DNA from: Marsupella aquatica | Lineage: Eukaryota; Plantae; Marchantiophyta | Assembly: GCA_973895155.1 (NCBI GenBank) | Contig: OZ316896.1 | Coordinates: 19,394,754 to 19,458,753 of the forward strand | Reading direction: 5' to 3' | Length of the DNA: 64,000 bases | Shown here: positions 30,109-61,327 of the stretch, piece after piece | Numbering within the stretch: the first letter of the stretch is position 1 | Layout: each line of letters opens with the position of its first letter | Program-made: the position numbers and the translations under genes | The notes under the pieces: model-generated | Databases searched by the model: none | The model's input: only the letters and a program-made list of their open reading frames with translations | Told to the model about the DNA's origin: nothing

Positions 30109-30316
30109 AACTCCCCCTTGACTCTTGTCTTGGGGACTGGACTAAATGCTACCATATGGAATCCTCAGCGGGAAGTTCTAGACAATCACCAAACCAGGTC
30201 TCCCCCTAAAAAACCACAAGGGTTAACTAAGGGTTAACTAGAACTAAGCCGTAGCCTAACAGGAATGAGTAATCCATATACAAATAGTCACACATTGCTA
30301 AATAACTCTACTTGCA

Positions 30317-33300
30317 CTACAACTGCAAAACCTGCAAAGTAGCACGGTGTCTTGAGAAACTCTCCAAAGGAATCACTTTGGTAAAGGCATCAGCGGGATT
30401 GAGCTTTCCATCAATCTTGACTAGCTCAAAAGTTTTATCAGACACTGCTTGCTTGATAAAATGGTACCTGATATCAATGTGTTTCACCCTGCTATCCATC
30501 ACCTGGTTAGCAGCCAAGTGAAGAGCACTTTGACTATCACAGTTTAGAGTCATTTTTCCATGCTCTAAACCCATCTCCGCGATCAACTTATCCAACCAAA
30601 TTGCTTCCTTTGTAGCTTCTGCTGCTGCAACATACTCTGCTTCTGTAGTAGACTGAGATATGCACTTCTGCAAGGTAGATTTCCAACTGATACATCCTCC
30701 TCCAAGAGTGTATACAAACCCAGTTGTAGATCTCCTTGTATCCAGACAGCCTCCATAGTCAGAATCTACATAGCCAACTAACGTTCTATTTGATCTGTTA
30801 TCAAATAGTAATCCATAGTCCTGTGTTCCCTTCACATACCTGAGAATCCATTTCACAGCTTCCCAATGTACCTTCCCTGGATTTGACATGAATCTGCTAA
30901 CCTTGCCCATCGCTAGGGCCAAGTCAGGCCTAGTACAAGTCATCAAATACATCAGACTGCCTACTGCCTTCTCATAAGGAATCTTAGCCATCAGACCTTT
31001 CTCCACAGCATCCGTAGGAGAGAAAGCTGATGATAACTTGAAATGTGAAGCTAAAGGAATACTCACTGGCTTACAGTTCTCCATGTTGAATCGTGCAAGT
31101 ACTTTCCTCGCATACTGGCCTTGACTCAAGCACAACTGTCTAGTCTCAGAGTTCCTAAAAATCTCCATCCCTAAGATCCTCTTGGCCTTACCAAGATCCT
31201 TCATCCTGAATTCAGCGCTCAATTTCGCCTTGAGACTATCAACCTCAGATTGATCTTTAGCCACAATTAGCATGTCATCCACATAGATCACCAGAATGAT
31301 GAAACCAAATACATCATTCTTGACTGATTTTGTATACACACAAGGATCATACACCATCCTTGTAAAACCTTGAGCAAGCATGAAATCATCAAACCGCTTG
31401 TTCCACTGTCTGGGAGACTGCTTCAATCCATACAAGGATTTGAGCAATCTGCAAACTAAGTTCTCTTGGCCCTTCTTCATAAAGCCTAGTGGCTGTCTCA
31501 TGAAGATCATCTCTTCCAAGTTGCCATAGAGAAAAGCAGTAACAACATCCATCTGATCCATCACCAGATTAAAAAACACAATAAGCTGACACAAGATCCG
31601 AATTGTGGAATACTTAGCCACCGGTGAAAAGACCTCATTGTAATCGACTCCTTTCTCCTGAGTGAACCCCTTGGCAACAAGCCTTGCCTTGTAGATCTTA
31701 TCTCCACCCTCTGAAGGACTGTCCTTCAACTTGTAAATCCACTTGTTGTCCACCACTTGTTGACCTTTTGGAAGCTCCACCAGCTCCCATGTCTTGTTGT
31801 CACTCAAAGATTGCAACTCCCTCTGCATTGCTCTATTCCACTCATGCTTCTGCTCTGAAGCACAAGCCTCACTATACGAAGAAGGCTCTCCTTCTTCCAA
31901 GATCAAAGCCATATCATCTTCATCAGGTGCAATGTCAATATCATCTAGCTTAGATGAGTCTGCCCATTGATCATACCTGGTAGGAGCTCTAGTAGAACGA
32001 CTGGAAGTTCTTCTAGTAGATGACTCAAGTTGATCTGTTGCTGCTGCTGGTTGAATTTGAGGTACCCCAGCAACAATTTGCTCCTCTTGTTCCATCACAG
32101 GAACCAGCTCCAAGCCCGAAGCTTCTCCATCTCTCCTGTCATGAACTGCATCATGACTAATCTCCCCCTCAACCCGGTCCGGGATGGGAGATTTCCCCTT
32201 GTCAGTATGGGAGTCCTGAGAACTCTCCCCCTCCTTTGATGATCTGGATTCATTAAAGGACACATCTCTACTGACAATTAGCTTACAGGTTACTGGATCC
32301 CATAACCTATAACCCTTCACACCTTTATGATAACCAAGGAAAATGCACTTCTTCGACTTGGAGTCTAGTTTGGATCGAAGCTGGGAAGGTGTAAGCACAT
32401 AAGCATCACATCCAAAAATCCTCAGATGTGAGTAATCTGTTGGACGCCCGTACCTCATTTCAAATGGCGTCTTGAATCCAATAGAACTGGATGGAGAAAA
32501 ATTTACCAAATAAGGTGCAGTGTTGACAGCTTCAGCCCAAAACTCATGTGGTAAGCATGATTGACTCAACATACTCCTCGAGCGGTCCAATAGTGTTCGG
32601 TTGAGTCTCTCAGAAACACCATTCTGCTGAGGAGTATAGCTTGTTGTGAGATGGTGGGTAATCCCCTGCTCCTTACAATACATTCCAAATTCACCGGAAC
32701 TGTATTCACCGCCGTTATCCGATCGAAGATATCTCACCTTATTACCAGTCTGATTTTCAACTTGGGCTTTCCACTCCTTAAAAGTGGCAAAAACATCAGA
32801 TTTATTGTGTAGAAAGTATATCCACACATACCTTGAGTAATCGTCAATGAACGTGACATAGTATAACCGTCCAGAATGTGAGGGAGTAGGGGCGGGACCC
32901 CACACATCACTATGTACATACTCAAGTACCTCCTTGCTGGTGTGAGTTCCAACTCCGAAGGGTTTCCTGTGCTGCTTCCCTAGCACACAGTGCTCACAAA
33001 ATTCCAACTTACAAGATTGCAAATTAGAAAGTAATCCTTTCTTCTGAAGAATAACCAAACCTTTTTCACTCATGTGGCCCAAACAGAAGTGCCACAGTCG
33101 GGCCGTCTCCTCATGAGATAAGGTTACATTGGCTTCATCACAAACTACACTGCCCTCCATAATGTATAGATTGCAATGTCTCTTTCCCTTCAATACAACT
33201 TTAGTACCAGTTGAAACCTGAAGGACACCATTAGCAGAACTCCACTGATGGCCATTTGCCTCTAAAACTCCAAGTGAAATGAGATTTTTCATCATGCTGG

Positions 33301-33535
33301 GAATATGTCTCACATTCCTCAATGTTCTCATAGCACCATCAAACATCTAAAATCTTACAGATCCAAGTCCAACAACTTGACATGGGATTCCATTTCCCAT
33401 CAACAGTGACCCGTTGGAAACCGTGTAAGAACTGAAATAATCTCTTCTAGAGCAAATATGAAAAGTACATGCACTATCTAGAATCCAGTCATCACTACCT
33501 GGATTTGACACTACGTTGAGAGCATAACCTTGACA
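30317..33535 (-). CDS. pol: Copia pol (protease-integrase-RT-RNase H), interrupted by an in-frame TAG within the protease region
   Basis: WILDSACTFHIC protease motif upstream of the TAG at 33347-33349. Integrase WH..LGH..CEHC, VHSDVWG, LRSDNGGEY and QNGVSER. RT YKARLVAKG, MDVVTAFL and YVDDML. RNase H DSDYGG, CDSQSA and KHIDIRYH. Confidence 0.93.
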
Positions 33536-34600
33536 TCACAATATGTCATCATCATCGAGTAAATCTACCTCATGCGAGCTTGATGCTGCGTTAGCAGAGG
33601 CAGTAGGGACCTTTACTCGACAATCCCTTTTCATGTGGCCTGGCTTGCCACAATTCCAATATGCAAGAGGCTTCCTCTCTTGCGATTTTCCTCTGGATTT
33701 AGATCTCCTCCGTGATGTAGATCTAAACCTGTTCTGCCCATTCGTGCGCTGCGTTGCTCTTCCCCTGTTCACATTGAGCGCAGTGCCAGAAGAAGATGTT
33801 GTCTGTGATTGACCCAGCTTCTTCTGAGCATCATCAGACAGTAAAGAGCTTACCACCTCATTATACGAAATGGACTTCAGATCTCTGTACAAGAGCACTT
33901 GTTTCAAGCCCTGATATGACGGCGGTAAGGAGCTTAGCAGAAGCAAGGCCTTATCCTCATCTTCAACTCCTTTTCCTAGGTTTGACAGATCAACCGCTAG
34001 ACTGTCAAACTCATCCAGGTGATCCTGCATCTTGCTCCCTTCCTTGAGCCTGAGGCTCATCAAGAGAGACTTCTTGTACAGTCGGTCTGACGCATCTTCC
34101 CGGTAGTACTTCTCTCTTAGAGCCTTGAATAGTGACGCGCAATCCGCATAATCATCCAGCTGCTTGATGATGTGCGGCTTGAGATATAGCATCACTGCAT
34201 TGACAGCAATCACCTGCTCCTGTCTCCATTGCCTCACTGAAATCTCCTCCTCTCCATCATACTGCTCTCGCGATGAAAGCAGATGAGCTAAGCCCATGGC
34301 CCGTAGAACACCCTTCACTTGCTTCTCCCAGAGCAAGTAATCAGTACGACCATCGTACTTCTCCACCTCAAACTTCACTCCTCCAAATCTAGCCATCTCC
34401 CTCTTCTTCCCTACTACCGACAGCTCTGGTAGTAACACAGCTTCCTCCACTGCACGCCGCACCGGTGATCGTACCGGTGTTATAAGTTCCTCCTCAAATG
34501 GTAGCAGCTCCTCCTCAGATTCTCCGTCTGACCGTCGCGATCCTGAAGCTCCACCGACGCCAATTCTTCCAGTATCCTCCGAGTCACTCATATGAAACAA
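33536..34600 (-). CDS. gag: Copia gag
   Basis: KFEVEKYDGRTDYLLW, LLLLSSLPPSY and zinc knuckle (Y)WNCGKPGHMKRDC with the first Cys mutated. Ends in a TGA that is in frame with pol. Start codon uncertain. Confidence 0.9.
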   Translation of the reverse strand: MFHMSDSEDTGRIGVGGASGSRRSDGESEEELLPFEEELITPVRSPVRRAVEEAVLLPELSVVGKKREMARFGGVKFEVEKYDGRTDYLLWEKQVKGVLRAMGLAHLLSSREQYDGEEEISVRQWRQEQVIAVNAVMLYLKPHIIKQLDDYADCASLFKALREKYYREDASDRLYKKSLLMSLRLKEGSKMQDHLDEFDSLAVDLSNLGKGVEDEDKALLLLSSLPPSYQGLKQVLLYRDLKSISYNEVVSSLLSDDAQKKLGQSQTTSSSGTALNVNRGRATQRTNGQNRFRSTSRRRSKSRGKSQERKPLAYWNCGKPGHMKRDCRVKVPTASANAASSSHEVDLLDDDDIL

Positions 34601-36119
34601 TCATGAAAAAACGTCTTTTTTCAAAACTTCTCATAAAACTCAAAACTCAACACCGCCGCGTAGCCCATGAAGCTAGGAGTCCAATACTGAAATCCAAAAT
34701 CAAAATCAAAATTCGACGAAAAAGTTATTCAAATTTCGGTCGGGGTGGGTAAAACCTTAGGAAACTCCCCCGTTTTGACCACCTCGGAGAATAACCAAAA
34801 TACCCAGTATAACCCGTCGTTGGAATTGCGATGTGATCGGTGCGCCACGTTGCCAACTCCAGTGGCAACGTCCTCACCAAAAAAGAACCAAAAAAGTTAC
34901 CGTGCGGGGACGGAATCTTTGTGTGACGGCCGAAAAATAGCTCTCTGTTTTTCAGGAATATTCCCGCACAGTCCAACAGGGCTCACAGGGGGCCGTTCCC
35001 CCTGTCGGAGCAGTTAAAACGGAGGGTCACAGGGCCCGGGATGAGGCACAACCAATGAGGAGGAGGAGAGAAAAAAAAATTCAGAAAAACACACTCTAAA
35101 GGGGTCTTAAAGCCCCTGGCAAAGGCGCGCGTATTCGCGGTATCGCGCGCGTATTCGCGGCCAGAATCGTGTATAAACAGCAAAAAACGTGAAAAAATGG
35201 GTTTAAAGGGGTCAAAATGCGCGTATTTTCACGTTTTTGGGCCGCATATGGGCGTTTTTGGCCGTATTTGGGCCCAAAAAAGCACGTTTTCACGCTTAAA
35301 GGGGTGTGGGAGGCCGGTGTGCGCGCCGGGGCGTATGGCGAACCTGGTTTGTCGGGTATTGGGGCCGTATTGGGGCAAAAAATGCCCTAAACTAACCTTA
35401 AAAATGTGCCCAAAATGACACAAAGGCCGTGTTACAAACCTCAACCGCCTCCGCTTTGGTTTCCAATGAGAAAAGTGATGACCGCCGACATGAAAATGTT
35501 TCCGAATTGCACCGGCACGTCTGAAGCTCCACCAGAGAAAGAACTTCAGTTGCGTCGCCTTCACTCCGCGTCAAGTGCCAATCCCGGACTCAAAACGACC
35601 GTCTCGCCACGATCTCTCCGTTGAGCCTCAGCACTTCGCGTTTCTTCCTCCGAGTCAAGCGTCACGACAAGTAATCCGGTTCAGGGAAAAACAAGCACCA
35701 TAGCTTGTCAAAAAACCAGAACGCCTCCTTCACTCGTCACGACGCACTCGTTTCGCAAACGTCAGCAAACTAGATACCAAAACGACCAGCACGCTCCAAC
35801 CTTCAACTTGAACTATCACATGCGATGCCCCGCACACCGCATAGCTCACACCGTTGAAGAAATAATCTCTGGTTTCTCCCCCGAAATACCGTCGAACACG
35901 AATAAACCCTGAACGATGCAAACTTCAATTCCTCCGCACCACGGATACCGATCAGCGAGCTCTAACCACCGTTAGAATGCCCTCTCACTAACCTATCCAC
36001 TCAGCCACACACAATCGAGTTTCATGCGACGAAACTCTGAATGTACCATCGACAATGAACGCTGGAAAAACTTGTCACGAAAAAACCTCGTCACCTCCCA
36101 GGCATGCTCTGATACCACT

Positions 36120-36463
36120 TGTTGAGCATAGACGACATTCGCAACGGCAAGCCCATGAACCATCCAACGTACAATAGTCGACACAGAGAGATACGTGGTT
36201 CACCTCCACATGAGGCTACGTCCACGGGAACACACAAGAGCTTTACTGCACTCTAGGTCGACCGGCCATACCAAGCATCCACAGCACAAGCTCTCCCTAT
36301 CTCTCAACTAGCTCTGTAACAATGAGCCTAAGTTCCACCAGGGTCTGGCATCAGCCCTGGCTATATGCACAACAGCACTACAGTTAACCTTAGCTAGGTC
36401 CTAACCCGAGTTAGCTTAACTGTGGTTAGCACAAGAGTCACAAGACTAGAGCAATATCTAACA
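36120..36463 (-). repeat. 5' LTR of the copia element
   Basis: Direct repeat of 29765-30108, adjacent to the PBS. Confidence 0.97.
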
Positions 36464-38225
36464 CTAGTGACTTAATAATGTCATAGTATTCTTCTAAAGA
36501 AATTTTGGGTTAAATATTGAAACCCTCATATTTATTCTATCAGTTCTTGGGCAGTGCCATTATCTTGAGTGCCATTATCTTGATATTTAATCACACACTT
36601 TCTTGGGCACTGGGATGATCTTAAATGATAATTGTGTGAGGACTATAAACTTACTAGGAGAATGTGTAATGATAAGTGTACAGGGCATTCAAACATAGAG
36701 AGGACAATGATGAGTACATCTAGTGGGGTGGTACAGGGTATAACTTCATTTGAAAAGATTTTAGCTAGAGTCTTTTGAGCCTTCACTTAAAGTCACAATT
36801 TTGCTCTCAAATCAGGGTCTTGTTAATCGTCAACTAGCCCAAATGCCCTAGGAAATAAATAACTTCCTTGGTCTTCCCAACGTCTTTGGAACGTACCTCC
36901 TCAACGTTTGATCCATCAATTTGCATATGAAAAATATCCCCAAGATGTGCGAGTGGAACAAATTAATTCAAACCATGAAAGAAACACATGACCTCAAAAG
37001 ACCCTTTAACCAACTACAAATGAACACAAATGTCTAATTTGACATGGCCTTAGTAGCAAGAGATTGATTGATCTCCAGGGGTATTCATTTATTTTCTTTC
37101 TACCCATCAAGTAATATAAGGTTTGTTTATTGAGTTCAAAAAAATACTTTTGATTTCCTGAAAAAATATTAGTGTTTTTAAAATACAAATTATTCCAAAA
37201 ATTTATTCTAAAAATTATAATAAAATATATTTTAGAATAAAATTTGAGAATATTTTAAGAATATTCCAAAAAGATAGGAATAGAAAATTAATTTAAAAAA
37301 CTTTTAAAATTATTTTTAAAGATATTTAATAACAAAAAAAAATAGAGGTTGTGAGATACTCTTGAGAGTGAGACCCCTGAGATTGATCTATAATGTGGAA
37401 GTGGTCAAAGAACCTTTCCATTAGCAACGTTGCAATTTGCTTTTTGAATTCTTTTAATGCGAAATAATAAAATTGTTTTTTCCTTTGTTGGTTCCTGTGG
37501 ATCGAGCGTCGCTGGCTTCTGTCTCGTGCTGGGTCTTGGTCATGGGTAGAGCAATTGTAGGGTACGAAATTTCCTTTCTGATAAGACAACTTAGCTTTCA
37601 ATTGATTCCTATTTATATCTACTCGAGAATGCTTGAGTTGAGCCCAAATGAGAGGCCTCCAATCTTCTTACGCTATAGCAATTTGCAGGTTCTGGTCATC
37701 CCCGTAAGACCTGGCCTACCCACTGTTACAGTATGGGTCAAGCGCGGGACCTCATACCTTTGGTAGGGACCGAGTGTTAGTATTTAATTGGATGGTTACA
37801 ACTCATAGCCAATGATAACAATTGTCCATGGAACTGGTCTCCTGTCCCGACAATCTCTCCCATACTCACATTCCACAAGAAAATTGCGCTCCTCGTTTCA
37901 GGTGAGATAGAATCAGAGTCTCAGAGAACTCCGATTGAGAGTCCTTCCAAAACGAATTGGACGGCCCACAGAGGTCACACAGCAACTTACTATCAGCGCA
38001 ACGCACCAAACTCTAAAGCAGAAACGGTCACCAGGCTGAGAAGCCGTGCTTGCGCATGGATTATTATTGGAGTCCCATTTCTCAGGTGATGGACGACCGA
38101 AGAAAAGCATGCAAATCAACCCTGCGTCAGTTGGGCCCATCCATCCACATTCTGACTCACAAAAAGGCAATAGACGGACGGTGCCTTAAATCTCGCTCCG
38201 AACTGTTTGCTACCTATGTAGTAGA

Positions 38226-38610: not shown

Positions 38611-39534
38611 AAAACAACACAAGCCCTAAGGAACGGGTCAAATTAAGGTGGGGTGCAGTGCACCAAAGATCTCAAGAGCGAAATGGTAGAACAAATCCCC
38701 AGGGTACCTAACAACAAAGGCATCCACTGTAACATTCATGTGGCATAATCCAAAAGATTATTCCAATTCTACATTACCAAAATAATCCTGGCATGTTGAT
38801 ATAACTTAATGACATAAAGTTGTGCGTGCCAATGACAATTGAACAGCATAATTATACTATTACGGAGAGTGAGAAAGTGAGCCAAATTGATGAACCTCAG
38901 ATTTTAGGCGGCATTTGGTATTTTGGCTCAAAGGGATTTGTTGGAATTGATCAGTAGAGCACATCTTCCAACAAGGCGTCCTATGCCTTCTCGGGGGTCT
39001 CACTCCGCGAAAATCTCATATCACGTGCGACGAAGTATAGGGTCCGTTAATTGGGTTTCTCGGAAGACTTAAGAAGATTTGTGTAAGAACAATAGGGCCA
39101 ACTTTATATGTTGGACAACTTGTAAGAATAATAGGGATATTAATATTTTTGACTTTGTAGATGGAAGGCATACAAAGAAGTTAGGGGGTCTTTGTGTCGG
39201 ACTATGTAAAGTACACGTGTCACTATGTCATTGGTACACGTGGCACACATAACATTCCCAATATATTTTCCTAATTTTTCTAAGATGTTAACATGGCAAG
39301 AATTTGAGAATGATCTGGTTTTATGGGGACTCACGTTTAGGGTTTGACCGGGATTAAGTTTGAAATTTTTCTGTTTAACGTGTCTCGTTTACCTCAATTG
39401 GCCCTTGTCAGTCCCTCCCGTGTCGTTTCCCTCCACTATCCCTTTGGCCCCACCCGCTCTTTGCCTCAACAGAGTCTCTTTTGTTTGTACCTTGCAGCAA
39501 ATGGCCTAAACGGGGTCTAAACCAGTTGTGCTCC

Positions 39535-40410
39535 TGCTTGGAGTGAAGGTCGGATCGAGCGAGAGTGTGCTCTCGACTGCACTTGGAGTGAAGGTTGGAT
39601 CGAGCGAGAGTGTGCTCTCGACTACACTGTTGCTGGAGTGAAGGATCGACTCCTGTTGTGCTCTCGACTGCACTGCTGCTGCGGCTGGAGTGAAGGATCG
39701 AGCTGCGTTGCTGCTGCGGCTGGAGTGAAGGATCGAGCTGCGGCTGGAGTGAAGGATCGAGCTGCGGCTGGAGTGAAGGATCGAGCTGCGGCTGGAGTGA
39801 AGGATCGAGCTGCGGCTGGAGTGAAGGATCGAGCTGCGTTGCTGCTGCGGCTGGAGTGAAGGATCAAGCAAGATTTCTCGGAGAAGGATCGAGCTGCGTT
39901 GCTGCTGCGGCTGGAGTGAAAGATCAAGCAAGAGTTCTCGGCGAAGGATCGAGCGAAGGAGTGAAGGGGAGAGCGAGAGTGAAGGGGAGAGCGAGAGTTC
40001 TCGGCGAAGGATCGAGCGAAGGATCGAGTGAAGCGCTGCTACTTGGAGTGAAGGGGAGAGCGAGAGTGTTGCGCTCTCGGCTGTGCTGTTGCCGTTGCTG
40101 CTTGAAGTGAAGGATTGACCAAGAGTTCCTGGCTGCGCTGCTGTTTAGAGTGAAGGGGAGAGCGAGACATCTCAGCTGCGCTGCTGCTTAGAGTGAAGGG
40201 GAGAGCGAGACTTCTCAGTTGCGTGCGCTGATTAGAGTGAAGGAGAGAGCGAGACTTCTCAGTTGCGTGTGCTGATTAGAGTGAAGGGGAGAGCGACACT
40301 TTGCAGCTGCGCTGCTGCTTGAAGTGAACCCGGGAGTGAAGGGGAGAGCGAGACTTTGTAGCTGCGCTGCTGCTTGAAGTGAACCCGGGAGTGAAGGATC
40401 GAGCAAGAGT
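39535..40410. repeat. GC-rich tandem/motif array with core GAGTGAAGG (24-bp unit GGCTGGAGTGAAGGATCGAGCTGC and variants) inside the P-like element
   Basis: About 5 consecutive 24-bp units at ~39718-39837, plus many variant units (GAGTGAAGGGGAGAGCGAG) extending to ~40400. Confidence 0.92.
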
Positions 40411-40584
40411 GTTGCGCTCCGGGAGGTGGGTGTCGAGAGTGTTGCATTGCTGCTTTCTAAAACGGGAGCTGCTAGCTTGCTGAAACGGGAGGTGGCTACT
40501 GCAGGGAGTGTTGCGATATCTCAAACCGGAGTGCCAGGATTGGAGCTGCATTGCTGCGTTGCTCAATCGGGAGGTAGGCGCTGC

Positions 40585-40989
40585 CTACTTTGACGATCGT
40601 ACTTGCTTGCTTGCTACTATTTGACGCCCAAATCTATCACGCATGGCACACCTAGAGTCGATCTGGTAGCGGTCATAGACGAGGAAGCACCTGATCTGCC
40701 CGTTTAGCTTTTCAACTATAAAATTCCTGTTCTGAGCTCCGTGAATGGCGATAAGCTCTTTGAGTATTTTGTCCTCCAGAGCTCGCCATGCCCTCGCAGA
40801 TAAGGTTTGGAGCCACTGCTGAGATCCAGCTCCAACTTCCCAGCCGAATACTAGCTCAGTATTGTCGTCATTTGTCTCGACGTTGTCCATACTCATCTCT
40901 CCTTCTGTGTCCGCATCGACGACTTGACGCACATGTTTTTTGGATGCATCGTTAGAGTAACCGCGAGTACAGGTCTCCAATGATTGCAC
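40585..40989 (-). CDS. Hypothetical antisense ORF inside the P-like element (unknown function; start uncertain)
   Basis: 134-codon open frame with protein-like composition, overlapping a second 62-aa frame (40952-41140). No recognised motif. Confidence 0.25.
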   Translation of the reverse strand: MQSLETCTRGYSNDASKKHVRQVVDADTEGEMSMDNVETNDDNTELVFGWEVGAGSQQWLQTLSARAWRALEDKILKELIAIHGAQNRNFIVEKLNGQIRCFLVYDRYQIDSRCAMRDRFGRQIVASKQVRSSK

Positions 40990-41644
40990 TTGCCATGATT
41001 GACCACCTTACATGATCTCCATCCATGGGCTGGACCCCAGGAAAAAAATCATGTAACTTGACTTCTGTCGTCCCCCACACACCCGCACAAATCTGGTTCT
41101 CTATTACATGCCTTGGTGTCCCGTTGGCTGGTTCCTGCAATTTTCTTTAAGTCATCTAGAAGAGAAGACTTCTTTAAGTGTTTACTCAGCCAGGGGGGAC
41201 CACAGCCTCCAGCCATACTGGGTGGCGGGCCTGGTCAAGACGTGGATGACGCTCGTGCTTGATTTTAAATTCTCTTTTGTTTCTCAAGCTTCTGGGCAAG
41301 GGCATTACCATTCTGGATTCTGAACTTGATCCTATTCAGGTTAGCTATTCAGGTCTGTTGAGCGATTGGGTTATTATTTTATTGCTGTAGTAACATGCAT
41401 GGCCAATTGGTTGTCTTCATGTAATGGGAAGTTTTTGAAACTTAGAAATTGAATGGTGGTTTCAATTTTGTTCACAGGTTGCAAAAGGAATTGTAGAGGT
41501 TGTCATCAGCGCTTGCAGCAGTGAGCACCAACACTTGCGGTGAAGCAGTTTGCTAGAACACATAGTGTACCTAGTGAATTGTAAGTTGCCTGTCATTGCA
41601 CGTCTAATCGTCTGGCCATTCACCGAGTATAAAAAAATAGTGCC

Positions 41645-42043
41645 ATGGCTATATTGGGCATTACATTAGAAGCGAATTATGAGAAGCTCCTTCTGCAGCA
41701 TCCAGATGAATGCTGCTGGTGTGAACCTTGTGTCAAGTGCAGGGTTGGTGATGGGAATTTTGAATGGTTCCATTGCTTCTGCTTGAAAATGCGTGGAAGG
41801 CTTGTTACTAGGACATACATGGGAAAGCATGGCAAAGTTGTCACACGTCGTTGGAAGTGCTCTTGTATAAGGCCAACCATTTGGCCTCAAAATGAGTGTC
41901 TTTTACGCAAGATTGTCATCCCGGACACGCTTGACATTGTAGTCCCTGATAGTATTCCACATTCAACTGAGCTTGATATTGTAGCCCCAGATAGTATATC
42001 AGATCAAGCTAAGGTTACAACCCATGGATGCTTGACATTGTAG
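41645..42043 (+). CDS. Small cargo ORF with a putative single PHD-like (ING-type) zinc finger, 132 aa
   Basis: CCWC-EP-CVKC...EWFHCFC...WKCSC follows a Cys4-His-Cys3 layout, and EWFH..C/W.C recalls ING PHD fingers. Good start context GCCATGG. C-terminal LDIV(V/A)PDSI repeats. Confidence 0.5.
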   Translation: MAILGITLEANYEKLLLQHPDECCWCEPCVKCRVGDGNFEWFHCFCLKMRGRLVTRTYMGKHGKVVTRRWKCSCIRPTIWPQNECLLRKIVIPDTLDIVVPDSIPHSTELDIVAPDSISDQAKVTTHGCLTL

Positions 42044-42359
42044 TCCTTGATAGTACATGGATGCGTTGTTCATATATGACTAGGCCTTTGTTTGCAAGGC
42101 TGCAATTGTACCATCCATGATATATGAGAATATTTTTCATTCCCATTATGTGGCAAAGTTTTGCAAGCTGGCATTGTATTTATGTATGTCTTGGTTGGTG
42201 GGTGTTCAGGTTGCACTGTGTAGTTGACTTCATCTGGGAGGGAGGTTTGCAGATCATTGGAGCAGGTGCTATGATTAACCTTATCTTTGTCTATGGATTG
42301 CTCACTATCATCATGTCCCCCTCATATGTGATGTGCTTTGTGATGATTGCAGTTGAACC

Positions 42360-43034
42360 ATGCCGACAAGGACTTCAAACATAAAGAAAGCAACACAGTC
42401 CTCTGACAGAGGAGCCTCTTTGGAAGAGGTATTGCGTATTCCGTTGTTCTCTGAGCAAGAGATTCTACAAACTAGCCCTCATGTTTGTGCAATTTGTGAG
42501 CATGGTGGGAAGTTGGTAATTTGTGATGGGCCATGTCACAGGCAATTTCATTATGTGGTTGGAGATGAAGCCCCTAATGACTCTTGCCCCTGTGTAGTCC
42601 TTCCCCTCCATCATGGAGGGAAGCCATGGTTTTGCCCAAATTGTAACCAGGACCAGGCCATGTGTTATGGGTGCCGCACTGTGGGACCGTCACCTACAAT
42701 TGTGCGAAAATGCTCTGATCGTTTTTGTGTACGATTTTATTGCTTTGGGTGTTTGGTAGCTGATGCAAAGTCCTGCCCACTGCATACATGTGTGACATGT
42801 TATCAGAGTCTTGAGGGTCAGATGGTCAAGAACATGGTACAATGTCTACGATGTCCAAATGCCTGGCATACAGATTGTCTCCAGATGATCAAAAGCAAAG
42901 GGTTCGCTCATGATAGGGACATCTGGGACCATGAAGCACATGGACAACAGCGACAGATGTTTTATTGCCCCCGTCATCCTATTGATCCACACCTCAAGAC
43001 TCCAATCAGGGACCACATTTCATGGCTCCAATGA
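42360..43034 (+). CDS. Stand-alone EDM2/NSD-type composite PHD finger protein, 224 aa (transposon cargo)
   Basis: VCAICEHGGKLVICDGPCHRQFH..WFCPNC..CYGC..CSDRFCVRFYCFGC..CPLHTCVTC..CLRCPNAWHTDCL..FYCPRHPIDPHLKTPIRDHI parallels the Arabidopsis EDM2 PHD region as I recall it (VCAICDNGG..CEGSC..FH..CPNC..CPLHKC..CRRCP..H..C..YC..H.ID..L.TP.RDH). Splice acceptor TTGCAG at 42347-42352 just before the ATG, with an in-frame TGA upstream. Confidence 0.85.
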   Translation: MPTRTSNIKKATQSSDRGASLEEVLRIPLFSEQEILQTSPHVCAICEHGGKLVICDGPCHRQFHYVVGDEAPNDSCPCVVLPLHHGGKPWFCPNCNQDQAMCYGCRTVGPSPTIVRKCSDRFCVRFYCFGCLVADAKSCPLHTCVTCYQSLEGQMVKNMVQCLRCPNAWHTDCLQMIKSKGFAHDRDIWDHEAHGQQRQMFYCPRHPIDPHLKTPIRDHISWLQ

Positions 43035-43529
43035 TCTGAATAATGAACAAACCTATTACTTAGGTTTCAACGTCTTAGTGGGGTATGAGCAAGGCACATA
43101 CTTAAGGTGCATCATGGGTGGTAGTACCCAATTTTATTAGTGTTGACATTTTGTCATAATTAAGGTCACTAATAGTGCTGCATTTTGATGAGCAGAAGCA
43201 CTAAACTTCGGGAATTGTTAGAAAAGCAGGCGAAAAGGATATTTTGTCCAAAGATATTTTATCCAACTTTAGCGGTATATCATGATTTTCACTGAATACA
43301 TTTGCATGTATGATGGATTGCATTATAAAGTGTTTTGGCCTATTAGCACTTCTATTGTTAAATGTATGCTGACATTATGTACATTACATGAGAATGTGTA
43401 TGTTGTCATTGCATCTCTTGAAGATCCTAATGTGTTTCCCTTGTGTGTATTTCAAATGTATTTGTGCAGGTCTTTCTGTTATCAACTCCAAAAGCAATGG
43501 TGCTATGCATGTTCTAGATTTGTATTGCA

Positions 43530-46500
43530 ATGGCAGCCCCTAAACCCAACTCTGTTAAATTAATACGCAAAGTTGGGGATGACAAGGCTGATTTACCAAT
43601 TTGTGTTTTGTCATTCAAAGAAGGACACACCCTACATGATTTTAGGGCTCGTATTGCCTCTACTCTAGACTTTGACTTTGATTTTTGGGATGAGAGACTT
43701 CCTGGTCGAGTGAAACTTGTACATGAGAAATTAATTGATCTGTCTGAGCTGGATGGAAGAGTTATTGTTGTACAACAAGAACTTGGAGATGGTGGGAGGA
43801 TCCCACCAGTACCCTGTCATCCTTGCACTCCTGCATCATTGGGTCCAAATACTGGGACACCACAACTGGGGCCAACGGCACTAGCACCCTCCCCTGTAAG
43901 GGCTTCTTTTGAGTCACAATTGATGGGAGATGTCCCATCAAAGCTATGGAAAGATGAGTGGATGAGGTTAGAGAAATGGGTACATAAGAAGGGTTATGGT
44001 GATCACAATTGGAGAATTCGTACCTGGGATGAGGGGACAGATGTTCGAGGGCATCTGGAGTGTCTTGAATGTAGGGAAACTTATGGCAATGCAGACAACT
44101 CTCAGAACCCTAAATCCATCTCCAATTGCTTTAGTAATTTTAAGACCAAACACTTGGTCTTCAATAAGCACAAGGATAACTATTGTCGGAGAAGGGGCAT
44201 TCCTTCTACTTTGGTTCAGGTAGCAGACATCTCTGAGAAGCCAGAATATGATCATGCAGACGCCATCAAAGTAGGTGTTGAGATAGTTCAACGATTGAAT
44301 GCTGAGCTTGGGGATGATGGCAAACTATTCTCTATTGTTCCTGATCCCAGTACTCCTGAGTATGTAAACAGGTCTTTCCTGTTTAAGGTTCGATGTACTG
44401 TCTGTGGAATGCTTCACACTGACTTGTGCCCCAAGAAGCTTACCTTGGAGCCCAATTTGAGGACACACTTAGTGAGTCGAGATCACTTGGATGCATTGGA
44501 GACTAGGCATGACACAAAAATGCTTGCCTTGAGGTCTGGGAAGAGGGGCAGGCCAAAGAGGACTGATTCTAGGGACCTACATCCTGGTCAGAGCGGGATT
44601 TTGAAGTTCTTTAAAGATGATGGGTCCCGGACAGGCAGCAGTTCAGGTTCAGGTTCAGGTGTGTGTGAATCTGTTGATCTTGGTCTGAGTTTGCTTTGCT
44701 GGGGATTATGGGTAGAGAGAGGTGTGCCTCGACTGTTATGGAAGGGTATATCTTATGATATTTCTGGCATTTTAGATGATCAGTCTGGGGGAATTACATG
44801 GCATTGTGAGCCAAGTTGTTGCTTGGATGTTTTCCATCCAAGTAGAGAGAGTGTTGTGAGTATAGCAGGCTGTTTTAGACACAAGGATTGCTTGAGGTTA
44901 TCACAGAATGGAGGAGGATTTGAAAATCTAACTTGTAGTGAATGTGATTCTATAACACTAGAAGATGATTTTCGTGGACGGGTGCACAGGGAAGCGGAAG
45001 CAGTAGTCCACAGAGGGAGCCGAACCACTGCTGGTGGTATACGTTTGGATTATTTGACCAACACAGAGTTAAGAGATCAAGTGCACAACCTGAACTCTGT
45101 GCGACGAAAAGAGCGTTGGTTGTTAGCTTTGCAGGCTCAGAAAGTATGTGCCTTGAGCACCAGGAAACGAAAACTAGAGGAGTTGTTAGGAGTTGCAGTA
45201 GACAGGAAGGATTTGAGATTGTTTCTTAGGAGTATTTTGAATGGACACAGGAATGGTGCATTTGGTGGTAAGGAGGGTTTGTGGGATTTCTTGAAGGATG
45301 TAGCTCGCAATTTAGGCAGGAAGCCAAAAGGTAATCGTTACAGTAATAGGACTCGAGCTATTGCTCAGGCTATGTTCCAATTTGGGGGCCGTCAAGTTGC
45401 TCATTGTTTTGCACGAAACTTGACAGCCCCTAGCCTTGTGACCCTAAAACGTGATAGAGCAAAACTCACACCTTTTCGAACCGGGTTACGGAAGGAAACC
45501 TTTCAGGAGATTGCTAGAGTGTTGTCTGCTGCAAAGCACTCATTGGGCATTGAGGGGGATGTGCCTGTTATCTTTGCTGAGGATGAAACAAGGATCAAAG
45601 AACGCCCTAGGTAATTGGAACTGGACATTTTTCCAATTGTTTTTTTAATGACTTTACAAGTAGCACTTGGCTGGAATTGCTGTGATATTGAAAAATTGCA
45701 TGTCTGTGTTTCAGGTGGGAGGCAAAGTATGATACTCTCATTGGTTTCTGTGGACCTTCAGAGCAGCATGTATGCTCCTATGGTTTGGAAATTCTAGTTG
45801 GTGAAGGTGATGAGGGGTATGATAAAATTGTAAGTACATTTGAACAATGCCCCAAGTGCATGTATGCCCGAGTTGTGATTGTGAATCCTCTGCATGAGTC
45901 CTTACCTAAATTGGCTGTGTGTGCACTTCCAACTTGTAATAAGTTCACAGCTTCTTGGGTACGAGAGCATTGGGTCCAGTTAAAGGCTTTTTGGGATGAA
46001 TATTGTAGAGCTATGGTAGGCCCTTTGCTTGGACATGCTAGTGATGGTGATGCACGTCGCCGAAAGCTGATGCTGGAAGATTACAGAGGGCAGAATGGAT
46101 CATACCCAAGGTACGGAGTTGGGTGGGAAGGGTGGACATACTCTGTTTCAATTCTACCAAATGGAGATTTGTATGGCTTTGGTGACCAAGACCAACCTCA
46201 TAATGGGAAAAAGATGATAAACCCCTTAGACAGAGTGTCTTCTTTACTGGTGCTAGGAGATCAACATGCATCTTTATCTTATGTAGCTAATGTCTACAAT
46301 CATTATCCAATTCATGAACATGGCATGGCTTGGGATGATGTGAATAGGACTGACCGGCAGAATTGGGCAGGTCCACAACGAATAGCAGCAAGAAGAGTGC
46401 AGCAATGTCTGAAAGATATGTATGAGAGGAGAGATGTACAACATGAACGAAGTTTAGGAACTCAGTTGTACTTGGAGATTTGTGCAGATTACTTAGATAT

Positions 46501-48106
46501 TTTCTTTTCTCCAGTTCATGATTTGAGGTCCCGTATTGTGTTAGCATCCAAGGTTTCATTCTTTCTACGTTTGTGGAGATTGTGGTTGAGGTTTGGTGAC
46601 CATTCAGTGGGTGGGAACTTTGCAGCACACACTGAGAAAGACATGATGTCTATTCAGGCTTTTCATGATGTTAACATGTCATGTCATTTCATTGTGCTGT
46701 TAATTTGTGCCTTTCGAGATAAGTTCCCACATCTAGGTGTTCCCTTCCACTTGCTAGGTTCAGATTGTTGTGAGATTTTCTTCAGCAAGGTAGGAGGCAT
46801 GAGTGGCCATGAGCGGAATTATGATTTTGGCTCTCTATTGGATAGTGCTGTTGGACTGAACCGGCTTGCTGCCCTAGAATATGGACCAGAAGGCTTGAAG
46901 ATAGGTCGTTCACATAAGAAACAAGATCATGTATGGGGGAAGATTCATCCTATAGGGGAAGGGGAGGAAGCACCAAATCTACTTGACTATTCTCTCATTG
47001 AGACTAATGAATTAGTGGTTGCAGCCCTTAAAGAAGGTTTTGTTGCTGCTAAGGATCTTATGCATCAATTGCAGATGTCTCCACGAAGTTCCTTACCAGC
47101 AGCTAGAAAGAGATGGTGGACATGTCCTTGGGTTGTGGAAAGTGAGACCTGGCCACTAGAGGTGGTTCTGAAGGAAGCAATTGTTTGCAATGATTCTGAG
47201 GAGCAAGTAGAGCACCAACCACCAGACATAGGTCCTCGCCCAACTGGAGATTTTCATGAATTGGAAGATCCTGAGGATGATCTGAATAGAATAGATGCAT
47301 GGTTAACAGAACCAGATCCCATTGTTGTTCCTGAGATGCATTCAGATGATGTACACAGAGATGATATACAGTTTGATGTAGACCCCTCAGATGAGCTTGA
47401 GACATTAGGTCATGAAGTTCGGCATGTGTTTGGATCAATTGTCCATGCTGTAACTAATGTACAGAATCGTACCAAGGTAGTGCCTACTGTTACTTATGAA
47501 GGCAAGGTGATTTACAAATCCACTCTGGTAAGCCAGTTGGTAGGAAATCCGCATTTGTCAAAAGATAGGCTGACAAGGGTGAAACAAGTGCTATACTATA
47601 GTACTGGCAAGAGAAAAGTGCAAGAAGTCAATCCTAACTCATGTTTTGTTGATGTTGGCACTGATTGTGCAATTGCATTTGAGTCTGATGATAGTCCTGC
47701 TCCAAGTACTAGATCTGGAAAAAGAAAGGGAGGAAAGAATAAGGTTGTGGTGGAGGCAATCTCAGCAGGTAAGAAATATTTTTGGTTGGGTCGGATTGTC
47801 CAAATGAGACAGAAGTATGGCAGTAGGTGGGGCAATTGTCGGTCACCAATTGATTTGATGGATAGGCCAACTCCACTTGCAGGGCAATCAGGTAACATTT
47901 GTGAACTGTTGTTAAATTGGTATAGTCCTATTGGTAAGAGCAAAAGTGAATTCAGATATGATACCACTGATTTGAAATGGATGGATATTGAAATGGTCAT
48001 TGCTAGTGTTAGTTTAACCATGAAAGAAGGGGTTATGGATCGTATCTATGTGTTGGATCCAATAGATAGACGTGCTTTGGATCAGTATCTTCAAACAATG
48101 GTATGA
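43530..48106 (+). CDS. P-element-like DDE transposase, 2 exons (43530-45610, 45715-48106), 1490 aa
   Basis: A 104-bp GT..AG intron (45611-45714) joins ORFs 43530 and 45785 in frame (..ERPR/WEAKYDTLIGFCG..). Candidate catalytic motifs FAEDET, HASDGD, DQPHNGKK (P-type DxxH) and GSDCCEIFFSKVGG (cf. P/THAP9 QDxLExxFxxxR). Two C2H2-like fingers and an AT-hook (KRGRPKR) lie N-terminally. Confidence 0.85.
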
Positions 48107-48232
48107 ATATCATGTTACTGTTTAGTTTTTGAGAGTCTGTATATATGTTTTATTTTGTTGTTTAGTTTTTGAGAGTCTGTATATATGTTTTATTTTGTTA
48201 ATATTAGTGGGTGTAGTGGGATAGGATAGGGG

Positions 48233-48292
48233 GTGACGGATTGGCAACTTGAGATCCTTTCTCAATTAGGGGTTCAATTCCCCTCCGTCACA
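48233..48292 (+). ncRNA. D-armless tRNA-like structure (59 nt plus discriminator) downstream of the transposase
   Basis: Acceptor stem GTGACGG/CCGTCAC (7/7 pairs), 9-nt linker, stem TTGAG/CTCAA with a 7-nt loop, and T-arm AGGGG-TTCAATT-CCCCT. No evidence of expression. Confidence 0.5.
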
Positions 48293-50477
48293 TGTTACAT
48301 CTCTCAACATAAGTTTTAAATGGAGTATGGATGGAGCATGGGATTGGTGATCAATGGGTGGAATGGATTATTTATGTTGTGACCTTAAAGGCCATCCCAC
48401 TTATGCACGTAAGGTTTATATTGGGATGACCTTTTAGGTACACAATATAAATGATGCATTGAAATGATCAAAGTTTAAGGTCGACAAAGGTGCAAGAACT
48501 GTTGCAGGGCGTGCCATGTCTGACATACGACTTCACAAGGTACTGACATAGACTTATCTTTTCTTTCTAGGCATTTTATATTGATATGTGACACTTTACT
48601 TCACAAATTATAGGGGCAATACAATTTGGATTTTAGACTCTTAGAAGAAAGAAAGAGGGAGGAAAAAAAATTTTCAACTTAATAAGTATGGGGGTCTAGG
48701 CATGAAAACGTCGCAGGTGATGGGGGGGTCCTCCATATAGTGAGACCCCCGAGTATGCCTTGTAAGCTCCTGGAGTCCCGTCCATTATCAGCACATAAAC
48801 TTGACTTGACAGTGAGTCCCTCTTCTATTCAAACAAAGATCCATCAATACTGCTGTAGCCAGAGTCCCTCACACAGTCCACTCCATTACCAGGGCATCAC
48901 TTTGAATAGCATGCTTCTATTCAAACAAACATCAATGAAGAATGATTTGTTTGAAAATTACTTTTCAAAATTAAAATCCCTTCTAATGGACTCAAATATA
49001 AATCTTTGAACCCGTCTTTGAAAGCCAGTGTCTGTAGAGCGTCAATTAAAATAAAAAAAGCTAATGTAATGTTCATTGTTACTACATAAACAATATCAAT
49101 CCAAATCAGCCTAAAACAAATAGCTCAAGTTTGCACTATTAATGTCTGAATCTCCTTCATATTTTGTGACTACCAGGAATTGCCCTCCCTTCCACCAATA
49201 GGCTATGCTTCTACAACTCTTGCTGTGCTTCAATGGACTTCCCACAAACCTTTCCAGCAATCCCATGTCTACAACCCCTATAAGGAACCTTTTGGACCAG
49301 GGGTCTTGTAGCTGAGCACATATATTTTTGTGTACCCATATAACTATCTTGAACAGGTATACTTAGGAAGCATGAGCCAGGCATTACAAAATTTTAGTGT
49401 GACTGGATGAATTGAACACACACAATGAGGGTGGGCACATTTGCATGATATTAAATTTCCTTGACAGTGTGTATGGCAGAACCTGGTTGCTTCAATTGGT
49501 GAACTTCCTAAATTGCATAGTTATTCTTTGTCATGTCACTACCAAGGACCGACCAGGGTGACATGGGACTCCATGGTAAGCCCAACTGTGTGGTCCGTAG
49601 ATGACCTCACAAGAACATGGTTCTACTCCAAGGGACCCTGGGACTCTGGGAGTGAATCGGAATCATTTGGTCCAATGTGAGAGAATCTAACTTTGGTCCA
49701 GAGGAAAGAAAGTTAGAGGTCCACTAACTATGGGAGGGAATCTGACTCATCTGGTCCATAGGGGAAGAAAGTTAGAGGTCCACTAACTATATTTCTCTTG
49801 TCATATGAGAGAAGATTCGTCTTAATTTCATGAGGACAAGTGTGAAAAGATTCTTTCAGTTTATGAGGACAAGTATTTTACGTGGACAAGAATCTACTTG
49901 TCAAGCTTATGTCCTATTCTCACTGTCCGTTCTGCTGTGAAATATCTCATGGGGACCTTCTCAATTCTCAAAGTCCAGGCAAAAGAAAAAGTCACTTTTT
50001 CGAAATGTCCAGCAACGGCTTGACAAAAGAGAGTGCCTTCGAAGAAGGACCGCTCCAAGTGTCCAAGAGAGCGAATCGGTCTAAGGGACTGATGAGATGT
50101 TGGTAGGAATTTTAGCTTCAGAATAATGTCGGTTTGGGTTGTTCAAATTAAGTGCTGGTCCGGAAGTCTGGCGTCACATGATTTCGGCTTGACCAGGACT
50201 GCAGCCAGGTCCTGCCTATGAAGATTCCCTATTGTTCCTACATTTGACCTGGGATCTATCAATCGCTGTAAGAGCGAGGATAAAAGTACCAACCCATCTC
50301 CAAGTCCGATCAAACAGCCACTCCATTTCCAGAACCGAGCTAAGCTGAAAGATCAGTGAAACTCTCGATTCTGAATCTCCTTCGGCTTATCGGTTCGGAA
50401 TTCCAGACAATTATCATCTTCCATCCAAGTTCTGCGTCAGTGTCTTCAATTCTTGATAGAGTTCAGTTCTTCCTACC

Positions 50478-51644
50478 ATGGCGGTCTATCAGCACCAGAG
50501 AGCCGAAGGGCCAGCCACCGTACTCGCCATTGGCAAGGCTGTTCCGCCAACTGCGTATCCTCAGAGTGAGTATGCGGATTTCTTCTTCGACATCACGAAT
50601 TGCAATGAGAAGACTGCGCTCAAGTCGAAGTTCGCCCGTATCTGCAAAAACTCTGGAATCAACCAGAGGTACTTCCATTGCACCGAGGAGGTGCTGAAGG
50701 CCAATCCAGCGATGTGTACGTACAAGGATGCTTCCCTCGATGTTCGCCAGGACATTGCCATCAAGGAGGTACCCAGGCTAGCAGCAAAGGCCGCAGAGCA
50801 GGCTCTCGAAGAATGGGGCCAACCCAGAGAGAACATTACGCATGTAGTTTTTGCTACCACCAGTGGTGTCAACATGCCTGGAGCGGATCTCACTCTTACC
50901 AGACTCCTCGGGTTGAACCCGAATGTCAAGCGCACCATGCTGTATCAGCAAGGGTGTTTTGGAGGAGCCACAGTTCTGCGTGTAGCTAAAGATTTGGCTG
51001 AGAACAACAAAGGTGCTCGAGTTCTGACCGTAGTCAGCGAACTCACGTGTGTGACATTCAGAGCGCCTAATGAGGAGCACCTGGACAACTTGGTCGGGTC
51101 GGCAATCTTTGGCGATGGAGCTTCAGTGCTGGTCATCGGCTCTGACCCGCTCAAGGTGGAGAAGCCTCTCTACGAAGTCCACTGGTCAGGAGAAACCATC
51201 CTTCCTGAGAGCGATGGTGCCATTGAGGGCCGACTGACACAAGCTGGTCTGATGTTTCATTTGCTGAAGGACGTTCCCGGTATCATTTCAAGGAATACAT
51301 TACCCATATTCAATGCTGCTCAATCTCAAATGACCGGGTCTCCCGGCTGGAATGATATCTTCTGGGTTGTGCACCCGGGAGGTCGTGCCATCCTTGATGA
51401 ACTGGAGAAGGCCTTGAGTTTGAAGCCTGAGAAGCTGAAAGCTACCAGAGATGTGCTCTATGACTACGGCAACATGTCTGGCGCTAGTGTTCTGTTTGTG
51501 CTCGACCAAATGAGAAATCTATCGGTTCAAAAGAACAGTACGACTACAGGTGAAGGGGCTGAGTGGGGAATTGTTGTGGCTTTCGGACCAGGCTTGACCG
51601 TGGAGGTATCAGTGTTAAGAAGTATCGGCTCACCTTCATTGTGA
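50478..51644 (+). CDS. Type III polyketide synthase, CHS/STCS-like (PKS2), 388 aa, intronless
   Basis: Same Cys-His-Asn triad and motifs as PKS1. Protein is well over 90% identical to PKS1 by eye, with many synonymous differences. Confidence 0.96.
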
Positions 51645-54246: not shown

Positions 54247-56439
54247 TTAAGCCTTTCGCCTTGGAGCAGTAGGAGCTCCTTTCCATCCGTCTAAGCACTG
54301 GAGGAGGGGACCAGCCAATTGACCTTCGGTCATGGCATCGTAAACTAGCTCAATATCTTCTCCTGGACACCTTGTCTCTGTACCTACTAGCAGCTTCGTG
54401 CCCAGCGATCTAACGAAATTGTACAGAGGAAAGCTTCGGCAGTCACTGATTCTATTGGGTACACTGGCAACACCACTGTCAAATTGACGTCGAATTTCTG
54501 GAACCGTTGCCTCAAGCTGACTTTTCACCTCCTCCTCGAACACCGAGATCCTTTTGAAAATGTCGGAGGTCTCATTTTCCTTTCGGAGACCGTGGTTAAC
54601 CAGAACTTGCCTCAGTTTCTGCATTAACGGGTAGGAGGCGCTAGTGGCATCGTCTATGTATGAAAATGGAGGCTGGTCATCCACCACTTTCAGAAGATCT
54701 CTCTCGTAAAAGCGAGACGTTAGAAGCGCACCATCGGCGCTGGAAAAGAGAGTCTTCTTGGCGGCCTGGGCCACGACATGCTTCACGCTCGCTTGCATGT
54801 TCTCTTCCAAATGCCTCAAATCGACCGCTTGGCACATTGCTACCAGAAATGTGGAAGACATCAGCTTCAAGATCTCAATCGCCTCTGCCGTCTTCCGAGC
54901 CGAAATCAGCCCAAGGGAGTTGACGTCCTGGTTGTGCTGCTCCGCACTCTGCACGTGTGTGGTCACCGGATTCGCAAGATACAGCAGCTCAGAACAGTAG
55001 GAAGCCATGGCTATTTCCGCTCCCTTGAAGCCGTAATCCAGGCTCGGATTCGGGCCTCCAGTCAGATTGGAAGGCAATCCGCTGTTGTAAAAGTCGTTCA
55101 CGAGTTCAGACATCTGGGCAAAAATCAGCTTTCCCAGAGCTGAAATTGCGAGACGCATGTTATCCATAGACACTCCGATTGGAGTTCCTTGAAAGTTCCC
55201 TCCATGCAGGGCCAGATCTCTGGAAACATCAATGAGCGGGTTGTCGTTCACGGAGTTAATCTCACGCTCGATGGCATGGGTTGCCGCGCGGATGACCTCA
55301 ATTTGAGGACCCAACCATTGCGGTGACGTTCTCAAGGCATACCGATCCTGCTTGGGCTTCTTCAAAGGATCTGTCTCGTGCAGTTTCGCAGCTGCCTTCA
55401 TGTAGGAGCTGCCTTCGAGCACGTATTCCATGATGGCTGCTGCCTCGATCTGCCCAGGGTGATGCTTGAGCTTGTGAGTCAAGTGATCGGTGAACTCTGG
55501 TTTGCCTTGCATCACCTCACAAAACAATGCGGATGATACCTCTGCAAACAATGCCAAGACGTTGGCGTCGTAGCAGACAGTGGAGGCCAGTCCAGAACCT
55601 ACTGCGGTACCATTCACCATAGCTAGTCCTTCTTTAGGCTTCAGCTCAAAGGGCTTCAGAAGTCCGCACATTTTCATGGCTTCATGGGAAGTCACGACCT
55701 TCCCATCTTCAGTGACCGCTCTAGAGTTGGACCTGCCGGTAAGAATTCCAGCGATGTAGGAAAGAGGGACCAGGTCCCCTGATGCGGTGATTGTGCCTCT
55801 GAGGGGCAGCTTGGGAGTTATTTGCTTGTTCAGAAGCTTCTGCAGAGTCTGAAGAACTTCCCAGCGAATTCCCGAGTAACCCTGGAGCAAAGTGTTGGTC
55901 CTCACCAGCATTGCAGCTCGAGTGGTGGCCACGTCCAGCACGTTGGCTGGGTCCTTACCAAGCACTCCTGCATTGAGGAAGCGAATGAGTTCCTTCTGGA
56001 GCTCCTCGCCCTGGTTAGTTCGTCGGTGAGAAGTGGCCCCAAAGCCCGTTGTGACGCCGTAGGTGTCAGTTCCCTTCATCGAGTGGGAGAGCACCCAATT
56101 CGAGCTCTCATCCACTCTCTCCTTGGCAGCTGCAGCGTCGAGTACCACTGACACGGACGGTCGTCTCGCCACAGCTGTAACCTGAGCCACACTGAGGGTC
56201 ACTCCCTGAATTACAACCTCCTTCGTCTCCTCAAATTCTTCCACCATGTGCTTCACTTCCTCCCAGTGGCTCCGCTGCATTGCCTGGGATGCTCGTCCCC
56301 AGTATAGGGGGTCGGCATCTTGATTCTCAAATTGCATCGCGTTTCCTTTAGAAGAAGGTCTGGGACTCAGACAGAGCTGAGCCGGCCAGCCAGTGAGGCT
56401 AGTGGCGCAAGGCTGCTGGGTTGCTACTTCCATCGCCAT
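54247..56439 (-). CDS. PAL: Phenylalanine ammonia-lyase (PAL2), 730 aa, intronless
   Basis: ASG (MIO) motif and all PAL motifs are present. Almost identical to PAL1 after residue ~45. First ATG at 56439. Confidence 0.97.
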
Positions 56440-61326: not shown

Positions 61327-61327
61327 A

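Follow-up and report, generated by a model that had tools for sequence, protein, structure and literature searches.

The question raised by this locus is whether a short reading frame in the liverwort Marsupella aquatica is a part of a host chromatin reader that has become a gene of a transposable element and, if so, what it does for that element. First-pass annotation of the window (the entire 64,000-nucleotide stretch of contig OZ316896.1 analysed here) had described a captured EDM2-type PHD module within a transposon, with a composite PHD cassette making up most of a 224-aa open frame. The frame does run from an ATG to a stop codon over this length (Table 1), its C-terminus consisting of the tail motif discussed below followed by LQ, and the cassette, which spans approximately residues 41–222, accounts for about 80% of it. 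NSD-type PHD models of Pfam matched residues 41–64, 142–206, and 144–175 with a best E value of 6e-8, PHDvar_NSD being the only model above its curated cut-off, and the closest solved structure was that of NSD2 (E 4e-6, residues 30–172). The AlphaFold model of this protein was poor (pLDDT 44.6) and was left unused.

The location of this frame inside a transposon was confirmed by an exhaustive search for element ends, which gave one clean solution, a DNA transposon of 9,764 bp (38990–48753) whose TIRs of 15 bp are perfect and which is flanked by a perfect TSD of 8 bp. A second match, of 10/11 positions, is found farther in, ~33 bp from the left end and ~45 bp from the right end. An autonomous element that inserted recently is indicated by the perfect TIRs and TSD together with the unbroken ORFs. 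A lone TIR-like sequence at 37366–37382 was also observed, which is complementary at 16/17 positions to the left end of the element and for which no partner was found within the window. The subterminal repeat array of the element is, judging from its sequence, a possible protein-binding or promoter region. ORF0, for which neither a Pfam match nor a usable match in the Atlas was found, carries repeated PDS motifs; this frame looks constrained and is possibly a third gene of the element. A weak Myb-like stretch (Pfam E 0.1) on the minus strand at 40696–40800, where the element is richer in CpG, was rejected as a candidate, as it had no support in the PDB search and its frame contains a stop in sister copies.

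Table 1. Features of the transposon carrying the PHD ORF (positions in the window).
Feature	Position	Strand	Remarks
Left 8-bp TSD	38982..38989	strandless	Identical to 48754–48761
Left TIR	38990..39004	+	15 bp, perfect
Subterminal GC-rich repeat array	39537..40397	+	9-bp motif in 19 copies, all on one strand
ORF0	41645..42043	+	132-aa Cys-rich protein; no family match
Acceptor-like site (ends 42352) and 7-nt leader	42344..42359	+	In-frame stop in leader; 1-nt indel among copies
PHD ORF	42360..43034	+	Stand-alone, intronless EDM2-type composite PHD cassette, 224 aa
Transposase exon 1	43530..45610	+	N-terminal domains, Cys/His clusters; ends just past first putative catalytic Asp
Transposase intron	45611..45714	+	Predicted, GT-AG, 104 nt; removal restores a 1490-aa frame
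Transposase exon 2	45715..48106	+	Predicted RNase H core of P-element type, interrupted by an insertion; acidic linker; C-terminal barrel
Transposase C-terminal BAH/SH3-like beta-barrel	47633..48100	+	Predicted; moderate match
Right TIR	48739..48753	-	
Right 8-bp TSD	48754..48761	strandless	

The element is situated among genes for PAL and type III PKS, each a single ORF, at 8364–9566 (-), 24517–26736 (+), 50460–51644 (+), 54247–56463 (-), and 60313–61340. The two PALs are 98% identical and inverted, the two PKSs are 84% identical, and decayed PAL pieces occur near 58.4 and 60.5–61.3 kb. From its sequence, this set appears to be a phenylpropanoid/bibenzyl gene cluster that has undergone duplication. 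The best match of the PKS was stilbenecarboxylate synthase 1 (5YPT), which we take to be a liverwort enzyme. A Copia-type LTR retrotransposon (29764–36463, minus strand) has 345-bp LTRs that are 98.8% identical and ORFs for gag (33536–34600) and pol (30317–33346), and a 234-aa frame at 18129–18833 resembles, by eye, the C-terminus of proteins of non-LTR retrotransposons. The CpG observed/expected ratio is 0.24–0.33 in TE coding regions vs. ~0.7 in host genes, and CHG is not depleted, a pattern that may be the footprint of mainly CG methylation.

After removal of the intron, the transposase is collinear from end to end with an uninterrupted relative of 1492 aa (37% identity), and exon 1 aligns with this intronless protein from residue 1. 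The transposase was not recognised by Pfam or PDB sequence searches, no direct Pfam TNP match being obtained, and no Pfam match to THAP was found in its N-terminal half. In the Atlas its core lies beside P-element TNP-like clusters (0.94, 194 shared features). The model of exon 2 (pLDDT 81.5) matched the Drosophila P transposase structure 6P5A in Foldseek (E 1e-4) and was superposed on it with a Z score of 22.4 and an rmsd of 2.9 over 298 residues, the next match having a Z score of 6.7; a P-element-type RNase H fold with the P-type insertion is thus predicted. The signature of the P-element superfamily is a D-D-E triad with D-x-x-H, and the candidate catalytic residues D685, D804, D853xxH856, and E1047, which were assigned by motif only, are conserved in the alignment. 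According to excerpts of two papers on these elements (PMC7776569, PMC3698922), the P superfamily has a TSD of 7–8 bp and THAP is restricted to animals. Within the exon 2 model, residues 640–795 fold into a barrel that matched BAH domains best, followed closely by chromo/Tudor barrels. It gave a Z score of 6.7 (rmsd 2.6–2.7, 81–85 residues) with DNMT1 BAH1 and EBS, and scores of 5.5–6.7, below Z 8, with many BAH domains and also with chromo/Tudor barrels. BAH domains of the AIPP3/EBS type, which read methyl-lysine, have an aromatic cage of three residues plus His/Asp. When the cage residues given in PMC7718874 were equated by motif, two aromatic positions were mostly kept and the third was non-aromatic in 16/16 sequences. 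The tail is predicted to be BAH-like, the match being a moderate one. Among 66 relatives of the transposase the named ones are mostly hypothetical proteins of Riccia, with one from a fern, and the transposase grouped with the Riccia proteins (99/98). None of 83 transposase sequences contained a PHD part, and scans of viral contigs and prokaryote genomes found no relatives.

The first-pass annotation had also placed the ATG of the PHD ORF after a splice acceptor. An acceptor-like TGCAG does end 7 nt upstream of the ATG, at 42352; however, a TGA stands in frame between the two (42354–42356), and in three of the four runs compared (X2, X3, and X5) sister copies have a 1-nt insertion at 42355. Due to this stop and insertion, the 7 nt behave like an untranslated leader, and use of the PHD ORF as an in-frame internal exon through this acceptor is ruled out. 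In another arrangement, splicing would join the PHD frame to the transposase as an optional N-terminal exon, similar to Rehavkus, in whose transposases a PHD is present (excerpt of PMC6446971). The PHD ORF is on the same strand as the transposase, 495 bp upstream of its ATG, and an AG at 43516–43517 could allow an in-frame join. We nevertheless consider such a fusion very improbable, as an in-frame stop comes after the strong acceptor at 43469, the intronless 1492-aa relatives share the transposase start and are free of PHD, and a stop is found 0–7 residues past the tail motif in 10/14 aligned relatives of the PHD ORF, the relative P0006, which was left out of this alignment, extending further. 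Longer forms of the PHD ORF were also sought, and none was found among 88 candidates; the search was a weak one, EDM2 having been missed as well.

With regard to the origin of the cassette, the next profile matches after its own family were EDM2 proteins, including the Arabidopsis EDM2 cluster, and liverwort paralogues. The PHD ORF showed 31% identity with Arabidopsis EDM2 (EDM2_ARATH, P0235) over ~200 residues (E 4e-27), and matched the Marchantia protein Mp1g03210 (P0084) with an E value of 2e-34. Most of the 150 profile matches listed also match Arabidopsis EDM2 outside the cassette, whereas the PHD ORF has no residues matched there, in keeping with the earlier statement that it lacks the rest of EDM2; it is accordingly a derivative and not itself an EDM2. 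EDM2 contains an RFD-like N-terminus, an acidic tract, and a methyltransferase-like (ELP) domain, all three of which are absent from the PHD ORF. The two proteins share an extra Cys in finger 1 and a C-terminal TP-x-RDH tail, both of which are lacking in the NSD-like sequences; although the Pfam names derive from the PHD cassette of NSD1/2/3, the match to NSD2 ends before the EDM2-type tail. These characters uphold the assignment to the EDM2 type, as opposed to unrelated PHDs. In contrast to EDM2, the PHD ORF has a shortened finger 2, is intronless and transposon-borne, and has lost the acidic residue before its first Cys. Breaks near residues 273, 303, 384, and 414 in partial products of Arabidopsis EDM2 hint, indirectly, that several exons encode the host cassette.

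Phylogenetic trees were constructed from 49, 43, and 35 rows picked by hand out of 152 extracted cassettes. The short PHD-only relatives formed one clade with a long stem (100/100 in both careful trees). This clade branched outside streptophyte EDM2 when NSD-like rows were included and inside EDM2 (94/92) when they were omitted, and in a quick tree of streptophytes only it joined a liverwort paralogue with an SH-aLRT of 83. Both placements were permitted by AU tests (p 0.22, 0.20), and an angiosperm-type EDM2 as the donor was rejected (AU p 0.007). The shifting position suggests long-branch pull, and the capture is thus old, the donor being placed only to the EDM2 family. Five liverwort EDM2 paralogues (P0083, P0084, P0086, P0087, and P0124) constitute a clade whose members start with an RFD-like part, carry the PHD cassette terminally, and have no methyltransferase-like domain. 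The cassette of these paralogues is terminal to within a few residues in 3/5 rows, as it is in the PHD ORF. A candidate donor is a liverwort paralogue of this kind, in which the PHDs are the last part of the protein. The idea of a captured EDM2 module consequently holds in so far as the ORF is EDM2-type and stands alone, but what is seen is an old, diverged family on a long stem rather than a recognisable recent piece of EDM2.

The family itself was first represented by six relatives from a word search (213–304 aa, 44–82% identity), to which more were added by the profile search. In a 14-row alignment, with identities of 36–81%, the Cys columns were 94% conserved vs. 47% for other columns, the Asp after Cys55 was nearly invariant, and a short basic stretch opens most of the complete rows. 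Of the 10 PHD-clade relatives that were looked up, none was from an annotated genome, and many of the transposase relatives are annotated in Riccia; the pairing of the two genes is thus perhaps limited to certain lineages. A scan of metagenomes yielded four loci, of which two are short copies of the PHD-only family, both broken by a stop or frameshift as would be expected of decayed TE copies; no transposase was found beside them within these loci (1.5 and 1.9 kb). The other two (L003:61-2070 and L004:67-2334) are intronless genes in which an NSD-type PHD cassette is followed by what appears by eye to be a SET-like domain. No relatives of the PHD ORF were found in a scan of viral contigs.

Information on sister copies was obtained from sequencing runs. 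The stretch was present in six runs from four studies and three organisms, four of these runs being used for sister-copy comparison. None of the six was listed as RNA, which carries no information on expression. In runs X1–X3 the median depth inside the element was 52–154 times that of the right-flank bin, and the PHD bin had 0.69–0.99 of the median transposase depth, where summed read depth does not equal copy number. Single contigs of X3 gave similar indications, with depths of 1636 for a 554-bp contig inside the PHD ORF, 1999–2162 for transposase contigs, and 26 for a flank contig; the 554-bp contig aligned without gaps and with 1 difference. In run X5, pieces of the PHD ORF and transposase occurred at similarly low depth with the flanks absent, and none of the contigs listed for this run bridged the two genes. 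The PHD ORF is intact in the dominant sister copies, whereas disruption there had been named as evidence against the earlier proposal. Among the 40 best-supported of 469 substitutions, synonymous variants made up 3/3 in the PHD ORF, 4/5 in ORF0, and 9/13 in the transposase, vs. an expected fraction of ~0.33; pooled over the three ORFs these few variants (16/21 silent) give p 6e-5, and those of the PHD ORF alone p 0.036. No indel inside the PHD frame was seen among 12 of the 60 indels. Some contigs join across 39097–43805 or 39246–48518, each gap being found in two runs, which suggests that they are internally deleted non-autonomous derivatives; the first deletion removes ORF0 and the PHD ORF and the second nearly everything.

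These results bear on the view that the PHD ORF is a passenger, i.e., a small host PHD gene from an unsampled bryophyte lineage that was amplified with one element family but does not serve it. The contigs on which PHD-only relatives are found are short (≤5.7 kb) and linkage to a transposase is known from this element alone, as would suit a passenger, and the possible decayed Myb-like fragment, if it is one at its Pfam E value of 0.1 and without PDB support, would hint at gene capture. On the other hand, the silent nature of all three PHD variants and the indel-free frame among the rows listed argue against this, as do the broken state of the two metagenome copies and the fact that liverwort proteomes gave EDM2 paralogues but no looked-up member of the PHD-only clade. 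We regard a passenger as improbable; the PHD ORF is probably a maintained accessory gene of a multi-copy P-element-type transposon.

The function of this gene depends upon what its fingers bind. The residue at the third position ahead of the first Cys was acidic in 0/14 rows of the PHD-only family, which include three near-duplicates of one another, vs. 67/84 host cassettes, the latter being those that remained after 56/140 were dropped because they did not fit the motif pattern. In AIRE-type fingers, an acidic residue near the place before the first Cys contacts unmodified H3K4. With this residue lost, the histone preference of EDM2 is not simply transferable to the PHD ORF, and on sequence grounds histone binding by the family may be changed or gone. 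The PHDs of EDM2 bind H3K9me2, at TEs, and the ASI1-AIPP1-EDM2 complex promotes distal polyadenylation, as stated in excerpts of several reports (PMC7529245, PMC7472560, PMC5364540, PMC10241880, PMC9292364). An excerpt of another study places H3K27me3 on bryophyte TEs as well (bioRxiv 2022.10.24.513474), so that the relevant mark need not be H3K9me2.

These properties of EDM2 and its partners form the basis of an anti-silencing or decoy role, in which the PHD-only protein would occupy the marks or partners of EDM2 and alter silencing or the choice of poly(A) site, enabling transcripts to reach the transposase. The transposase is situated downstream of the PHD ORF and of its AT-rich 3' region, an architecture that would permit a proximal vs. 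distal choice, and the VANC protein provides a precedent for a TE-encoded anti-silencing ORF (excerpt of PMC6446971). However, identity to EDM2 is only ~31% and the stem is long, whereas tracking of the host surface would be expected of a decoy, the entrance of the first finger is changed, and the RFD-like and methyltransferase-like parts are missing. The lost acidic residue in particular weakens the idea that the same marks are read as by EDM2 and hence a simple decoy. We consider an anti-silencing or decoy role as a whole unlikely.

Our preferred reading of the accessory gene draws upon RAGL transposons, where RAG2L is a second gene with PHD fingers, including a double PHD (excerpt of PMC10629977). 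By analogy, the PHD protein could be a RAG2L-like accessory reader that acts with the transposase on chromatin, a tentative proposal with a somewhat less than even chance of being correct. The pairing of a BAH protein (AIPP3) with a PHD protein (AIPP2) offers a precedent (excerpt of PMC7718874). The steps would be as follows. A plant EDM2-family gene was likely captured long ago and trimmed to its zinc-finger cassette. Acceptor-like sites are present at 41477, 42352, and 43469, and one upstream leader joined to alternative acceptors could give rise to mRNAs for ORF0, the PHD protein, and the transposase. The PHD protein would then bind nucleosomes or the transposase, and would steer the latter either to copies of the element that have been silenced, so that these are excised, or to certain target chromatin. 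It is conceivable, but rather doubtful, that in a plant P-type lineage the THAP-based biology has been replaced in this manner by a BAH-like tail and a retuned EDM2-derived PHD protein. In that case, the element would use host silencing marks as landing or launch signals, in a plant parallel to RAG1L-RAG2L.

A full-text literature search found no TE-borne EDM2 cassette, nor this element or autonomous P-type elements of liverworts; the family to which the element belongs may be present in Repbase-type catalogues. The P superfamily is not listed in the class II section of a table of land-plant TEs (PMC9033089), and an excerpt of a broad DDE survey reports few plant members in most superfamilies (bioRxiv 2021.09.26.461848). 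As the element looks intact and recently mobile and its genes are separable, it offers a tractable case for asking whether a TE can repurpose a host silencing reader. For studies of structure and specificity, the PHD ORF provides a compact, naturally occurring form of the EDM2 cassette, and the element may be of use in bryophytes as a native P-type transposon tool.

The relationship of this element to known systems may be summarized as follows. With members of the P-element superfamily, such as Drosophila P, THAP9, Galileo, and 1360, it shares the predicted fold, an 8-bp TSD, and an intron in the transposase gene, but it differs from them in its land-plant host, its size of 9.8 kb, its 1490-aa transposase without THAP, its 15-bp TIRs, its predicted BAH-like tail, and its two extra ORFs, and identity in the structural alignment is 14%. 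Accessory chromatin proteins on transposons are already known, RAG2L and VANC among them, and what seems new here is the likely derivation from the host reader EDM2. To our knowledge, VANC is not an EDM2-type PHD protein. VANC of VANDAL/Hiun and the accessory ORFs of MULEs are likewise extra TE-encoded ORFs acting on chromatin, and in Rehavkus a PHD is also carried by a DNA transposon, but within the transposase and in animals (excerpts of PMC6446971). RAGL (RAG1L plus RAG2L) is likewise a DNA transposon with a second, PHD-bearing gene; however, it belongs to a different superfamily, and RAG2L, with its kelch core, is a convergent case, whereas the protein described here is PHD-only, tandem, and EDM2-derived.
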